NCBI GenBank assembly: GCA_965116885.1
Contig: OZ220741.1
Location: 3,456,001 to 3,520,000, forward strand
Source of the DNA: Candidatus Latescibacterota bacterium
GTDB taxonomy: Bacteria > Latescibacterota > UBA2968
Length of the DNA stretch: 64,000 nt
Direction of reading: 5' to 3'
Positions within the stretch are counted from its first letter, which is position 1, and each line of letters begins with the position of its first letter. The notes beneath the pieces were generated by a model. The model searched no databases. It was not told the DNA's origin and saw only the letters and a list, made by a program, of their open reading frames with translations. The position numbers were made by a program, and so were the translations under genes. Positions 1-22,846 of the stretch are shown piece by piece.

Positions 1-244
1 CCAGACCACCTGATGTTCTGTTCGAGTAATAGGGTTTGTTCCCTTCACTGCGTGTTTCTCGAATGACGCGATAAATTCGCTCTGCTTTTGGATAATGGCG
101 ATCAACAAGCCATTCTGCCCGCACAAAACACAGCACCAATAGGCAACAGGCTATACCTACAGCCAATCCCAAAAGATTAATCGCCGAATAGAGTTTGTGT
201 CGCAAAAGGTTGCGCGTTGCAACCATAAGATAATTTTTCAGCAT
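1..244 (-). CDS. ABC transporter permease (MacB/FtsX-like), N-terminal part, runs off the window edge
   Basis: Not in the ORF track. Manual translation from ATG at 244 gives MLKNYLMVATRNLLRHKLYSAINLLGLAVGIACCLLV..., the typical start of large ABC permeases and similar to 20438..22846. Confidence 0.85.
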   Translation of the reverse strand, partial: MLKNYLMVATRNLLRHKLYSAINLLGLAVGIACCLLVLCFVRAEWLVDRHYPKAERIYRVIRETRSEGNKPYYSNRTSGGL

Positions 245-4937: not shown

Positions 4938-5753
4938 TCATAGGTCAGATTCGAGATTCGGCGCTGCATCGCTCTGGCTGATTCCCTTCGCTGTCATGAA
5001 CCGCGGTCGATCCAGGACGTTAAAGCTCCTTGAGTGCAGAGCCGACATGTTCGTGACATACGCCTCACCCGGGTCTCCTGTCAGTTCCACCACACGCAGA
5101 GGATGACCCCAAACGTCGGTGAATTTCTCCATGAATCGTTGCCTGCGATCCTCGGAGTCCCTTTTATGAATTAGATTTCGCAACCAGGTGTGAGAGGCAA
5201 AGAACCTTTGCTTTATGTGCCTGACCTTCAGGTCAAGCTGCTGCGGGGAGAGCTCGCTGTAGAACTTGCACACAACATGGTGTGAACCCTCAACCAGAAC
5301 CGTGCCTCCGCCTTCCGGATCGACCTTACTCAGAAAGCAGAAAATGAAGATGTCGCGGAGCTGGTCAACATTGCGAAGCGGGTTTCCGTGCCAGTGCCAG
5401 TCGGTTGCGATGTCCCAACTTTCTCGCTGCTGGGGGAAGGTGTACAGCACAATGCCGCGATCTTTCGGGGGACGCCACTGTCCCTGACCGAGCAACTGAT
5501 CTACCACTGCTGCAAATTCTGCCGTCATGGCTTCTCGAAAGATGCGAGATTTTCTCACGGATCGGCTGACTCCACCCGGATATTTTCGCCAGGTCGCAGG
5601 ATCATCCCGCAATACGTCCTCTCTCTCCAGCCGACGCCAGATCGTTGATTCCATCTCAGCGGCGTCTTCGGCCGTAAAGGCGCGCACCTTGACGTAGCCA
5701 CGGGTGCAGAGCTGCTCAAGGTCTTGTTCGTTCAGTGGTCCATCAGTCGTCAT
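4938..5753 (-). CDS. Phytanoyl-CoA dioxygenase (PhyH) family protein, HxH variant
   Basis: RGYVKV start, GGGTVLVEGSHH, ELTGDPGEA, distal LHSRSFN...RFM; iron motif reads WHWHG rather than WHxDG. Confidence 0.8.
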   Translation of the reverse strand: MTTDGPLNEQDLEQLCTRGYVKVRAFTAEDAAEMESTIWRRLEREDVLRDDPATWRKYPGGVSRSVRKSRIFREAMTAEFAAVVDQLLGQGQWRPPKDRGIVLYTFPQQRESWDIATDWHWHGNPLRNVDQLRDIFIFCFLSKVDPEGGGTVLVEGSHHVVCKFYSELSPQQLDLKVRHIKQRFFASHTWLRNLIHKRDSEDRRQRFMEKFTDVWGHPLRVVELTGDPGEAYVTNMSALHSRSFNVLDRPRFMTAKGISQSDAAPNLESDL

Positions 5754-5792
5754 GGAATTGCCTTTCTATATCGGTGAATAAAATGAAGAAGT

Positions 5793-5897
5793 TGGCAGAG
5801 GGTGTGGGGATCGAACCCATATACGGGATATCCCACAGGATACCCGTAGCCCTCGGTTTGGAAGCCTCGGGGCCAGCACCACTGGCTCTCACCCCCT
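5793..5897 (-). tRNA. Atypical tRNA-Sec-like (8/4, allo-tRNA-like) gene with 8-nt anticodon loop; identity undetermined
   Basis: Folded by hand: acceptor AGGGGGTG/CACCCTCT, discriminator G, encoded CCA; D arm GCCAG-TGGTG-CTGGC; anticodon arm CCCGAGG-CTTCCAAA-CCGAGGG; variable arm TACGGGTATCC-TGTG-GGATATCCCGTA; T arm TGGG-TTCGATC-CCCA. A TATTAT -10-like hexamer lies 5 nt upstream (5903-5908). Confidence 0.85.
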
Positions 5898-6016
5898 GCT
5901 CAATAATACGACGATGTCACAAAATGGAATGTTTCGGGTGGGATAGGGGAGACTACATCTTATTCGTCTCGAAGCGCTTGCGTCTAACGATGGGTGTGGT
6001 TGATGTGGCAGGGCTT

Positions 6017-6778
6017 TTATTCAGGCTTACGACAGGAAAAAACGACGATATCATGCTCCGATGGTTCGGTGTCCCCGTAAGCTTTCGTCATTTGTATATC
6101 CATAAAGCCTGCGGTAAGCAGCATTTCTTCAAATTCAACTATGTCATAAAACCGTTCATTATAGTCGAACAGTTCAGTCGTAGTGAGCTCTCCATTTATA
6201 TACACTTCATATTTGGTCAGGTTGCGAATGACTCGTCCACCGTCTCTTTCAGACCATAATGAAGTAATCCAAACAGTCGAACCATCAGGCCGGTCTTCGA
6301 TTTCAATTTCCGTTTCACCTGATTTTCCAAACTCATCTTCTTCGGGTGGTGTCTTGACGTCCAGAACAAACCATCCACCGGGCAAGAGATAGTCCCAGAG
6401 TTTCTGGAGAGATTTCTGAGCAGCTTCCCGTTCATAGAGATGACCAAAAGAACGGTCCGGGATGAAAATGAATCCATATTGTCGCGACAGGTTGATTTCT
6501 TCAATCAATTGTTGATACAGCGAGGGCTCTAAGCCCTTTTCTGTGCATTTCTTACGACATTCAGCCAGCATATATGGTGAAGCATCTACCCCCTCAATAT
6601 CCGCTCCTGCTTCCAGAAAAGGGATTAGAAAATATCCTGTTCCACACATCGGTTCAAGGACCGGGCCTGGTCTTCCAGCTTTCTTCCACTTATCCAGGTA
6701 GAACGGAAGCATATCGCCGCGTCTTCCTTCCAGGTCGTAGCCTTGAGAGTAGATTCTTCCGTAAAAGGACTGCTTCAA
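6017..6778 (-). CDS. Class I SAM-dependent methyltransferase
   Basis: VLEPMCGTG, GVDAS, LLPGGWFVLD, MLLTAGF; same family as 2930..3733. Confidence 0.9.
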   Translation of the reverse strand: MKQSFYGRIYSQGYDLEGRRGDMLPFYLDKWKKAGRPGPVLEPMCGTGYFLIPFLEAGADIEGVDASPYMLAECRKKCTEKGLEPSLYQQLIEEINLSRQYGFIFIPDRSFGHLYEREAAQKSLQKLWDYLLPGGWFVLDVKTPPEEDEFGKSGETEIEIEDRPDGSTVWITSLWSERDGGRVIRNLTKYEVYINGELTTTELFDYNERFYDIVEFEEMLLTAGFMDIQMTKAYGDTEPSEHDIVVFSCRKPE

Positions 6779-6913
6779 GTTTGGGTCTCCTCAACAAAGC
6801 TGTTATTTCATATTTCGCCTGAGGTTTATGCAAGTGTACTCTTTTTCCATGAGGAGAGTTCGAGTGGTAATCAGTACATAGTTTCTCAACATGGTAGTGC
6901 TCCCGAGAGATAC

Positions 6914-20437: not shown

Positions 20438-22846
20438 CTATAAACGTCTGAGTGCCTTTACTGGGTCGGAATTCGCTGCACGAAGCGTCTGCGACCCAAC
20501 TACTGTGAGAACAACTGCTGCCATCACGGCAACAACACCACCGAACAGCCACAGACTCATTGTGGTCCGGAGGGGGAACTGGTTTAACCAGAGGTGGTTT
20601 GCAAACCACGCAGCAGGCGCTGCAAGTAGAACCGCCACAACAAGCATCAAGAGAAAATCCTTTGACAAGAGCACAGCGATCTGCCAAGAACTCGCTCCCA
20701 GAACCTTACGTATTGCAACTGCCTTGACCTGCATTTCCGTGACATGCATAGCTATTCCCAACATGCCAAGTAAGGCCAAAAGCACCCCGAAAGCGCTAAT
20801 CAGAGCAATGATATGCAAAACATCGGAATAGATTCTAGCGAGCATTCCTTTTTGGATTTGCGTCGTAAACAGATCGTACTCCACTTTCCAAGGACTTCCT
20901 AACTCAGCCCAGACCTGTTCGAGGTGCGCAACCGCCTCAGGCATATGGCCGGGTAACACGCGCACGTTTGCCCAATGTATGCCCGCTGGCTCACAGAGCA
21001 GTATGACAGGATCAATATCCATGCCTATGCCATATGTCTGAAAGTCTTCCAGAATCCCCACAATGGTAGGTTTCGTGTTCTTCCCTGACACGTTCAAGAT
21101 TTGACCTATCGCTTGCTCTTCGTTTTCCAGACCCAGCAGCCGAGTAGCGGTTCTATTGAGCAGCACACTCCTGTGAATATCCGATGGGCGATTGAAGTAA
21201 CGGCCTGCAAATAGCTTGAGTTTCAGGTTCGAAACAAAATTGTAGTCCACTATTAATTCGGAAACTGAAACTGTCTTAGGATCACCTCTCCCAATCGTCA
21301 CCGAACGTTCTGATCGCTCACCCTGCATCAGAATCTGTGAGGAACCAGAAATGAGCTCCACTGAGGGCGATTGCTCCATCGCCTGCCGGAACACGTCGTA
21401 GCCCACTCCCTGAAGCCGTACGTTCACTATATTTTCATGATCAAATCCATAGTCGGACGATACCATATATCGGAACTGCTGGTACACGAACAGGGTCGAG
21501 AGGACGAAGAATAACGACATGCCAAACTGCCCCACCACAAACATCCGATTGAATGACTTGGCTCGATCCTTTGTAAAACTTCCTCCCTTCAAGATCAAGA
21601 CTGGGACGAATCGGGAAAGATGAAGTGCGGGGTAGGTGCCCGCAAGAATGCCTACGCCTACGCTGAAGCCAAGGACAGTGAGATAGACCGTCAGATCTTT
21701 GAGAACGTCGAGCTTGATGCGGGCCAAGGGAAAAAATGAAGTAAAGAACATCTCGTTGAAAGCAGGAATTAACCATACCAACAGCCACATGGCAAAAAAC
21801 GTCGCCAGCAATACTGTTAGAATCGACTCCACCAATATTTGGCCAATGATCTGTCTGCGATATGCACCTACGACTTTCCGAATTGCCACCTCGTGGGCTC
21901 TGGCCATTGCTCTGGCCACAATTAAGTTGGTATAATTGTAGCACGCCCCTATCAGTATTATAGCGGCCAGAACACTAACAAAATAAACAGCCATGATAGG
22001 AACCATCCAACTAAGTTGGTTAACTCTCATGACGCTCAGGTTGACGTCGGTCAGTAAGTGGGCACTTGCCCTCTCTATCTGTCGATCTGTACCAGGAGGG
22101 TAGTGGTCTTGAATGATCTGTGTGAAGTATCTTTCCAGGACCGTTGGGTGGGTACCTTCTCGTAAGACCAGGAATGTGTATGTATCATTCAGGCCATCGC
22201 TCCACTGAGGAATGCCGCGGGGTGGCGCAAATTTCAAGGTCTCAAACGACACCAGGATCTGAAACCGTACATAGCTGGCCCCTAACGGATCCGCCAGGAC
22301 GCCCGTTACCTTGTATGGCGTCTGTCCGATCATCACAGTCTGATTCAGTGGGCTGGAATCTCCAAAGAATGCAACCGACTTGTTCTGCGAAAGCACGATG
22401 GAATTGGGTTCGGAAAGCGCGGTAGCGGGATTCCCCTCCACAAGAGCGAAATCGAATACCTCGAAAAACGACGGCTCGGCATAAAGGCCAGACACTTTAA
22501 TTTGACTTTGACTGCCGGGAAAGCCCATGGAACCACGGAATCTGCGTAACCGTGTCGTCACTTCTACATCTGGGCAGATATCTTGAAGAAGCGAAGCAAG
22601 ACTCGCAGGTGTCGTTGCGTAGGAGCGAACACGATCAGGCTGGGTGGGCGAACGGTAGTCGCAGATGGTGAGATAGATACGATCTGCCTTCTTGTGCCAT
22701 GCATCAGACGTTTTTTGGTATGACACAAACAAGATGATCAGCAGGCAGATCGACAGACTTGCTCCTAGTCCTAAAACGTTGATCATTGACAAGATTTTAT
22801 TCTTCAACAGATTCCGAACCGCTACAACCAGATAATTACGCAGCAT
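20438..22846 (-). CDS. ABC transporter permease (MacB/FtsX-like, duplicated domains)
   Basis: MLRNYLVVAVRNLLKNK, two copies of the (E/A)VAIRKVxGA motif, GTYPALHLS, terminal AANSDPVKALR. Confidence 0.92.
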   Translation of the reverse strand: MLRNYLVVAVRNLLKNKILSMINVLGLGASLSICLLIILFVSYQKTSDAWHKKADRIYLTICDYRSPTQPDRVRSYATTPASLASLLQDICPDVEVTTRLRRFRGSMGFPGSQSQIKVSGLYAEPSFFEVFDFALVEGNPATALSEPNSIVLSQNKSVAFFGDSSPLNQTVMIGQTPYKVTGVLADPLGASYVRFQILVSFETLKFAPPRGIPQWSDGLNDTYTFLVLREGTHPTVLERYFTQIIQDHYPPGTDRQIERASAHLLTDVNLSVMRVNQLSWMVPIMAVYFVSVLAAIILIGACYNYTNLIVARAMARAHEVAIRKVVGAYRRQIIGQILVESILTVLLATFFAMWLLVWLIPAFNEMFFTSFFPLARIKLDVLKDLTVYLTVLGFSVGVGILAGTYPALHLSRFVPVLILKGGSFTKDRAKSFNRMFVVGQFGMSLFFVLSTLFVYQQFRYMVSSDYGFDHENIVNVRLQGVGYDVFRQAMEQSPSVELISGSSQILMQGERSERSVTIGRGDPKTVSVSELIVDYNFVSNLKLKLFAGRYFNRPSDIHRSVLLNRTATRLLGLENEEQAIGQILNVSGKNTKPTIVGILEDFQTYGIGMDIDPVILLCEPAGIHWANVRVLPGHMPEAVAHLEQVWAELGSPWKVEYDLFTTQIQKGMLARIYSDVLHIIALISAFGVLLALLGMLGIAMHVTEMQVKAVAIRKVLGASSWQIAVLLSKDFLLMLVVAVLLAAPAAWFANHLWLNQFPLRTTMSLWLFGGVVAVMAAVVLTVVGSQTLRAANSDPVKALRRL

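Follow-up and report, generated by a model that had tools for sequence, protein, structure and literature searches.

Allo-tRNAs and the related irregular tRNAs are the closest known kind of molecule to the RNA described in this work, and the source phyla named for them are Clostridia, Proteobacteria, and Acidobacteria (PMC5389517, PMC7609411). In Escherichia coli, serylation was observed for allo-tRNAs that combine a long variable arm with G73, and a G3:U70 pair led mainly to the insertion of alanine (Mukai et al. 2017, PMC5389517). The elements recognised are the long variable arm together with G73 in the case of SerRS and, as the main one, G3:U70 in the case of AlaRS, and the insertion of serine and/or alanine by such molecules was independent of the anticodon (PMC5389517, PMC7609411). 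Several allo-tRNA-like sequences were inactive in translation (PMC5389517). In this paper, we describe a 105-nucleotide (nt) tRNA-like gene, called here type A, located at positions 5793-5897 (minus strand) of a 64,000-nt stretch of DNA (the window) that is part of the closed 5.56-Mb genome of a Candidatus Latescibacterota bacterium. With moderate confidence, we propose that type A is an allo-tRNA-like mimic which is processed, probably charged with serine and/or alanine, and kept off normal decoding. No report of such RNAs in Latescibacterota was found in the literature searched on allo-tRNAs and tRNA-like RNAs, which included the main text of PMC5389517.

With the allo-tRNAs and irregular-tRNA polycistrons, as presented in the main text of PMC5389517, type A shares an 8/4 acceptor/T branch, a long variable arm, a long D stem with a small loop, a long anticodon stem, and G73; the original prediction had likened its 8/4 body, long variable arm, and G73 to allo-tRNAs, and this comparison holds. 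Allo-tRNAs in general have a 12-bp acceptor branch split 8/4 or 9/3, and either G73 or U73. The features of this body plan are thus present in type A, but the standard 7-nt triplet loop is not, unless a G.A pair is accepted as closing the loop in an allele with an extra G that is discussed below. Further similarities concern the RNA family to which type A belongs, since allo-tRNAs also include forms with G3:U70, tandem arrays, translation-inactive members, extra loops, and false positives of the model for selenocysteine (Sec) tRNA. In contrast, allo-tRNAs carry triplet anticodons covering 35 codons, whereas the loop of type A has 8-9 nt and its siblings have loops of 4, 6, or 12 nt or a branch at this position. 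In addition, all members of the Latescibacterota family share one acceptor-stem sequence, and no toxin-antitoxin or transposon genes lie nearby. This comparison covers the main text of PMC5389517, and odd loops like those of this family could occur among the irregular and five-stem forms in its supplement.

Several other systems resemble type A in part. Bacterial tRNA-Sec (RF01852) shares with it an 8-base-pair (bp) acceptor stem, a D stem of the 6-bp type, a long variable arm, and G73, but differs in its 5-bp T stem (4 bp in type A) and its UCA anticodon. Minor 8/4 forms of tRNA-Sec with a bulge have been reported; the T stem of type A has no bulge, and its acceptor/T branch comprises 8 + 4 = 12 bp. 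The +1 frameshift suppressors of the sufD type are ordinary isoacceptors with one inserted anticodon-loop base. Type A resembles them through one extra loop base in part of its copies, the loop having 8 nt in 8 of 16 copies and 9 nt in the other 8, while its non-canonical 8/4 body, its invisibility to ARAGORN, its variable loop size, and its non-decoding siblings set it apart. Transfer-messenger RNA (tmRNA) uses G3.U70 and alanine. Unlike tmRNA, type A has no mRNA-like part and no sequence relation to it, and its charging is a prediction; the genome also has an ordinary tmRNA of its own. As proposed for type A, tmRNA and the tRNA-Other molecules cited in PMC5389517 are tRNA-shaped and aminoacylated without anticodon decoding. 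Finally, the selC* tRNA-Cys, which is served by a dedicated CysRS* (Mukai et al. 2017), combines a Sec-like 8/4 body with A1:U72 and offers a precedent for the reading of an acceptor stem by a synthetase paralog. Its discriminator is U73 and its loop is a normal one with the anticodon GCA or UCA, whereas type A has G73 and no linked synthetase paralog.

Type A is read on the minus strand, with A1 at window position 5897 and the 3' A of CCA at 5793. The 5' strand of the acceptor stem (5890-5897, AGGGGGUG, with A1, G2, and G3) pairs with 5797-5804 in an 8-bp helix that contains A1-U72 and a single wobble, G3.U70, as determined by RNAfold and direct reading. The D arm (5872-5886) has a stem of 5-6 bp and a loop of 3-5 nt containing GG. 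It is followed by an anticodon-like arm (5850-5871) of 7-8 layers, in which three C-G pairs, a tandem G.A/A.G, and two G-C pairs lead to the 8-nt loop CUUCCAAA at 5857-5864. The variable arm (5822-5848) consists of 11 bp with a single bulged U and the loop UGUG, and the T arm (5805-5819) of the 4-bp stem UGGG/CCCA and the loop UUCGAUC. The acceptor 3' strand, G73, and an encoded CCA occupy 5793-5804 (CACCCUCU). All anatomical claims of the original prediction were reproduced by sequence reading and RNAfold. Upstream of the gene lies a leader (5898-5953, minus strand), delimited by the extent of homology in other genomes, which moves with the gene and may contain a promoter. The -10 box predicted there exists as TATTAT at positions -11 to -6 (5908-5903), although a consensus scan found no complete sigma-70 promoter.

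Standard annotation tools pass over this gene. ARAGORN, run on the window and on the genome, did not call type A, and Rfam reported no family at gathering score in the window. The best sub-threshold match in a 501-nt search was tRNA-Sec (RF01852), with 34.6 bits against a cut-off of 47 and E = 3.5e-5, so the proposed covariance-model comparison with selC fell short of its threshold; in this alignment, the second C of the type A loop appears as an insertion. A plus-strand open reading frame (ORF) at 5735-6259, which crosses the element, has no Pfam match. The folding energy of type A is not significant on its own (z = -1.51, with 17 of 200 shuffles folding equally well), and it is conservation, not folding energy, that makes type A more than a chance fold.

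A BLAST search of 61 genomes showed that 13 of the 21 belonging to the window's genus carry a full or near-full copy of type A, at 92-100% identity. Six of these copies, the window's own among them, match at 100%; a seventh matches fully except that its first 9 nt are absent, five show 95-96% identity, and one shows 92%. Three additional partial copies were found in the same search, and in the 40 genomes of other genera there were only matches of 32-34 nt (39-41 bits, 88% identity), in two genomes. When 151 genomes of the phylum were searched with a covariance model built from the seven distinct copies, scores above 80 bits were confined to the window's genus. Every carrier is a metagenome-assembled or uncultured genome. 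The 15 aligned copies agree in every letter of the loop, CUUCCAAA, which rules out an assembly error and answers the call for homologs with the same loop. When the 34 modelled pairs were checked in the seven distinct copies, 238 of 238 cells were paired, as against 28-57% with slid partners. Among the copies, two D-stem pairs are changed on both sides, four more pairs change to or from wobble, C27-G48 becomes U.G in one copy, and G54-C72 of the variable arm is found as G-C, G.U, and A-U. In three species, the element shows 0 mismatches in 105 nt, compared with 2-3 differences in 51 and 11-13 in 394 positions of the flanks; in the remaining species, the divergence of the element is about equal to that of the flanks. 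Type A is a real, conserved, tRNA-shaped gene and not an artefact, and its presence in 13 of 21 genomes, with every modelled pair intact in the seven distinct copies, agrees with the earlier view that it is maintained rather than decaying.

Some altered copies were also observed. Second type A copies in two genomes (L028:1128-1259 and L027:327-458, both on the minus strand) carry a 26-nt hairpin-forming insert inside the T loop. Dead copies occur in the same variable region: one (L036, genome G015) has lost the 5' acceptor strand through a 13-nt deletion, and another (L044, genome G006) diverges after position 79.

Type A is one member of a small, lineage-restricted family of RNAs in a sponge-associated family of Latescibacterota. 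Its paralogs were reached through weak matches of the type A covariance model. The window's genome carries a tandem pair of them, types B and C, outside the window (G000:C1:2449100-2449299, locus L049:1501-1700); one gene is 87 nt long with a tetraloop at the anticodon position, the other is 93 nt long with the 12-nt loop AGCAAAACACAA, and ARAGORN calls neither. All family members have the 8/4 branch, begin with AGGGGG(U/C)G, and end with CCCUCU-G-CCA. The pattern formed by the T arm and the 3' end occurs in 20 of 168 genomes of the phylum. These include 18 of the 30 further genomes from the window's family and 1 of the 22 from a neighbouring family, and none of the 115 others has the pattern. 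A scan of genome contigs with the T-arm/3'-end motif gave at least 124 matches, 109 of the 124 listed being ordinary tRNA genes (108 for serine, 1 for glutamine), and is uninformative outside the phylum. A scan of Joint Genome Institute (JGI) metagenomes yielded two matches, one of which is a genuine form of the sister genus and the other a coincidence spanning ordinary tRNA genes. A separate observation concerns a contig of a metagenome-assembled genome of Pseudomonadota (L109), which contains four tandem repeats at a spacing of about 120-240 nt, each ending in a tRNA-Ser-like variable arm, a T arm, and a 3' acceptor strand with CCA, and having no recognisable 5' half.

When 26 distinct family sequences were folded under constraints on the acceptor and T arms alone, and the folds were read by eye, separate D, anticodon-position, and variable hairpins were seen in 23 cases, the exceptions being the 92-nt, the 101-nt, and one 106-nt sequence. 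The hairpin at the anticodon position is the part that differs between members. It ends in a tetraloop in ten sequences (type B), in a loop of 6-9 nt in three, in the 8-nt (two sequences) or 9-nt (two sequences) loop of type A, in an 8-12-nt loop with a conserved A/C-rich sequence in five (type C), and in a branched 60-nt insert in one. In an alignment of 34 distinct family sequences, pairing is kept in 95.6% of cells (47-59% in slid controls) and 21 of 34 pairs are changed on both sides, a result matched by 0 of 500 shuffles; this alignment was fitted to the model, with the anticodon and variable columns forced for the shorter types, and its acceptor, D, and T helices are the reliable ones. 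A1-U72 is found in all 34 sequences. The 3-70 pair is G.U in 32 of them and never G-C, and 32 end in GCCA; the two sequences without CCA carry A3-U70 and look degenerate. All six pairs of the D arm have changed on both sides across the family, while three pairs of the T stem are invariant and its outer pair covaries (A-U, U-A, G-C, and C-G). The T loop and a GG-containing D loop together form the elbow of a tRNA. The family holds fixed the half that is read by maturation enzymes and synthetases (acceptor, G73, CCA, T and D loops, and variable arm), with the anticodon arm left free. Because decoding is impossible for siblings that share its acceptor stem, type A itself is most likely off the decoding path.

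These data bear on the possibility that type A is a functionless relic. In this view, a class-II or Sec-type tRNA gene was duplicated, the copy lost the geometry of its anticodon loop, and drift and recombination in a variable region have kept it in place. Such an origin could account for its absence from 8 of 21 genomes of the genus, the 5'-truncated copy in G015 and the 3'-truncated copy in G006, the copies in G007 and G011 whose T loop is interrupted by a 26-nt insert, its position in a region shuffled between species, and a degree of conservation that barely exceeds that of the flanks in several genomes. However, every stem substitution observed preserves pairing, and a related form is still present in a second genus and on a metagenome contig. 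In the family as a whole, covariation is strong, A1-U72 does not vary, and G3.U70 and CCA are nearly invariant. Type A is also not a recent copy of the resident selC, to which it is 62% identical. We regard the relic explanation as quite improbable.

The loop at the anticodon position varies between the copies of type A. It has 8 nt in 8 of 16 copies, and the other 8 carry an extra G on its 5' side, which gives 9 unpaired bases or, provided that G.A is accepted as the closing pair, the 7-nt loop CUUCCAA. The sister-genus form, known from a second genus of the same family and from one JGI metagenome contig, has the loop CAUCCAAA with the same unpaired G; read by eye, its sequences replace the tandem G.A of type A with A.C plus G.U, and they have an A where the UCC register needs U33. 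The conserved part is thus UCCAAA, with neither the size of the loop nor U33 of the UCC register conserved. The loop of type A equals that of the resident tRNA-Gly(UCC) (CUUCCAA) with one additional A, that of the resident tRNA-Trp (CUCCAAA) with one additional U, or that of the tRNA-Sec model (CUUCAAA) with one additional C, and the sequence by itself favours no decoding register.

Whether these loops are used in decoding is the question raised by another explanation, in which type A is a working allo-tRNA, charged with serine or alanine and delivered by EF-Tu, that reads GGA/GGG (through UCC), UGG (through CCA), or the quadruplet UGGA and thereby causes low-level missense incorporation or +1 frameshifting. 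Its 12-bp acceptor/T branch, canonical T loop, D-loop GG, G73, and CCA are all intact, the loop letters do not vary among the aligned copies, and both the near-identity to the resident tRNA-Gly or tRNA-Trp loop and the 7-nt loop that the extra-G allele can form would suit a decoder. Moreover, allo-tRNAs with non-serine anticodons were active in translation in E. coli (PMC5389517), and a natural 8-nt anticodon loop reads triplets in yeast mitochondria (as described in PMC7609411). On the other hand, the unpaired loop has 8 or 9 nt depending on the copy, the stem has 7-8 layers with a tandem G.A, U33 of the UCC register is not kept in the sister-genus form, and siblings with the same acceptor stem end in tetraloops or 12-nt loops. 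The genome already has its own tRNA-Gly(UCC), tRNA-Trp(CCA), four tRNA-Ser genes, and canonical selC, along with selA, selB, and selD, so type A is not needed for decoding. We consider a decoding role unlikely. The quadruplet UCCA of the original prediction is affected accordingly: the 8-nt loop is real, but its reading as a four-base anticodon is weakened by the extra G in half of the copies and by the non-decoding siblings.

The relation to tRNA-Sec can be settled more firmly. The genome has a canonical selC (70.1 bits, anticodon UCA), which adjoins selD at 0.607 Mb (G000:C1:607502-608627), as well as selA and selB adjacent to each other at 5.19 Mb. The separate selC and selAB that were to be looked for are thus present, and, as had been stated, no selA, selB, or selD lies in the window; all are outside it, as is selC. 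Type A itself scores below the gathering cut-off, has no UCA in a 7-nt loop, has no 13-bp (8/5) branch, and is not partnered with selA, selB, or selD. It is not the Sec tRNA of this genome. Types B and C score 31-32 bits with the tRNA-Sec model, about as type A does, and because these paralogs with different loops score alike, Sec-likeness is a property of the shared body and not of the type A loop. Type A is 63-66% identical to types B and C, 62% to the resident selC, and 56-59% to the resident tRNA-Ser genes; with an identity to selC no higher than that to its paralogs, a recent selC duplicate with an inserted C is unsupported. The earlier suggestion of an opal-reading tRNA disarmed by one inserted C is not supported, on these grounds and because UCCAAA also occurs in the sister-genus loop. 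As a side observation, the selD gene beside selC contains one in-frame TGA, for which reason SelD itself is probably a selenoprotein.

Type A is located within the first ~20 kb of the window (1-20400), in a run of about 20 small same-strand genes that encode GNAT acetyltransferases, S-adenosylmethionine (SAM) methyltransferases, PhyH-type oxygenases, NUDIX, MFS, and GFA proteins, a 2'-5' RNA ligase-like protein, and sulfatases. The order of genes in this run differs between species of the genus, and its pieces remain 90-98% identical. Within it, type A travels as a unit of about 166-190 nt that includes about 50 nt of its own upstream sequence; homology to other genomes stops on the upstream side at a point that lies between 5944 and 5980, and on the downstream side near 5788, and the neighbours beyond these limits differ. 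A 271-aa ORF just downstream shows a PhyH-like histidine motif by eye and has no match in Pfam, NCBIfam, or PDB. The original prediction described type A as horizontally carried, a description that the data do not bear out, as strong matches are confined to one genus, two patterns gave 0 matches in viral contigs, and the surroundings lack integrase, toxin-antitoxin, and defence genes. Specifically, no integrase domain was detected in 40 ORFs scanned around type A, and no toxin-antitoxin, transposon, or defence genes were found near it, where there were only generic methyltransferase and NUDIX similarities. An integron cassette array was considered for this region and rejected: there is no recurrent repeat or palindrome, and no attC-like imperfect inverted repeat, in window positions 1-21000, no IntI integrase, and no motif shared by 23 breakpoints, and a motif common to two spacers occurs only twice in the genome. 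A search for antisense targets of the family loops returned, at 0 mismatches, only the genes themselves. The mosaic array is bounded by a full MacB/FtsX-type permease gene (20438-22846, minus strand), and short N-terminal fragments of similar permeases (MLKNYL..., MLRNYV...) are found at the start of the window (2-244, minus strand) and in a spacer (6779-6913, minus strand); these fragments may be scars of recombination.

The position of these genes suggests one more role: they could be tRNA-shaped signals for processing or stability, comparable to plant mitochondrial t-elements, with RNase P and 3' trimming setting mRNA ends and the RNA remaining uncharged and outside translation. The B/C array occupies a fixed site in 13 genomes of the genus, where a PhyH-type gene flanks it on one side and a TIM-barrel gene on the other; it comprises one to three copies, whose type varies, and the tandem pair begins 24 nt past the PhyH-type stop codon. 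Type A precedes a same-strand ORF by 40 nt. Metatranscriptome contigs from three studies overlap type A; two runs of one study contain contigs of 229 and 235 nt that span the whole element, and those of the third study also include the variant with the extra G and the one with an insert in the T loop, the latter seen in contigs of one run with loose ends at window 5810/5811. The contigs continue from type A into both flanks, which would suit a processing element. Their ends, like the stretches beside type A that lack cover in some runs, are unusable as transcript ends. Nevertheless, a cutting signal needs no G73, CCA, near-invariant G3.U70, or conserved variable arm, and type A changes neighbourhoods along with its own ~50-nt leader. 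We give the processing role only a slight probability.

A candidate partner for type A was sought among the proteins of the genome, which encodes one SerRS and one AlaRS. FemAB homologues number 0 in the genome. The DUF2156/LPG_synthase_C family includes aminoacyl-tRNA-dependent transferases; a single standalone homologue was found (L217, G000:C1:754422-757940; a 310-aa frame, 49 bits), unlinked to the tRNA-like genes. A neighbouring 300-aa two-domain GNAT protein was considered as a Fem-type aminoacyl-tRNA transferase and rejected, as it only matches acetyl-CoA-type acetyltransferases. The genome also has a second TrpRS paralog (L202:4344-5090, minus strand, corresponding to G000:C1:5316343-5317089) of 248 aa, which is 49% identical to the canonical 355-aa TrpRS and keeps the HIGH motif without the KMSKS region and most of the C-terminal domain. 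Among relatives, both short (245-248 aa, 80-98% identity) and long (330-332 aa) forms occur. A1-U72 and G73 are also bacterial TrpRS elements, and the resident tRNA-Trp carries both. However, the gene is unlinked to type A, and in the 21 genomes of the genus its short or long form does not track the presence of type A; the TrpRS paralog as a charging partner stays a lead.

In our preferred reading, that of a chargeable mimic outside decoding, type A would be transcribed and then trimmed like a tRNA. It would be charged with serine, through its long variable arm and G73, and/or with alanine, through G3.U70. It may then act off the ribosome, either as an amino-acid carrier or as a decoy or sensor for a tRNA-binding protein, and the regulatory or decoy role put forward in the original prediction is plausible in this respect. 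The presence of its sequence in the metatranscriptome contigs described above speaks for this reading. Several points weigh against this reading. Searches of the genome for a partner protein, covering synthetases, FemAB, and DUF2156, found none. Covariation within type A itself is weak, since with 7 distinct sequences 23-31 of 500 shuffles match the observed values. The gene is dispensable, being absent from the 8 genomes noted above and 5'-truncated in one. The extra-G allele can be drawn as a perfect C-U-UCC-A-A loop identical to that of the resident tRNA-Gly, and the 12-bp acceptor/T branch has a length that was compatible with EF-Tu in published allo-tRNA tests. Finally, the RNA-library contigs give neither strand nor ends, and carry-over of DNA into these libraries is possible.

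A broader proposal, which we advance tentatively, extends this reading to the entire family. The lineage may possess a set of chargeable mimics built on one fixed acceptor/T handle (A1-U72, G3.U70, G73, and CCA) with exchangeable anticodon-arm modules, serving as aminoacyl carriers off the ribosome. The handle would be loaded with alanine and/or serine by housekeeping synthetases, and each RNA would be directed by its variable module to a user or sensor of its own outside the ribosome. The modules would comprise the tetraloop, the 6-nt loop, the Sec-like loop of 8-9 nt, the conserved 12-nt loop, and the branched insert, type A being the member with the Sec-like loop.

The combination of a shared, fixed acceptor handle with freely varying anticodon arms is what is new in this family compared with the allo-tRNA and irregular-tRNA group. 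All three family members in the genome are missed by tRNA finders and Rfam, an annotation gap that points to a class of tRNA-shaped RNAs hidden in uncultured symbionts. The family also represents a natural experiment, in which the chargeable half of a tRNA is parted from the decoding half and one acceptor body of the alanine/serine type is joined to very different anticodon arms. If type A decodes, it would be a rare natural tRNA with an anticodon loop of 8-9 nt. If these RNAs are charged, they would add to the few known aminoacylated RNAs that do not decode, and they would provide new orthogonal scaffolds for genetic-code engineering, a purpose that allo-tRNAs already serve.

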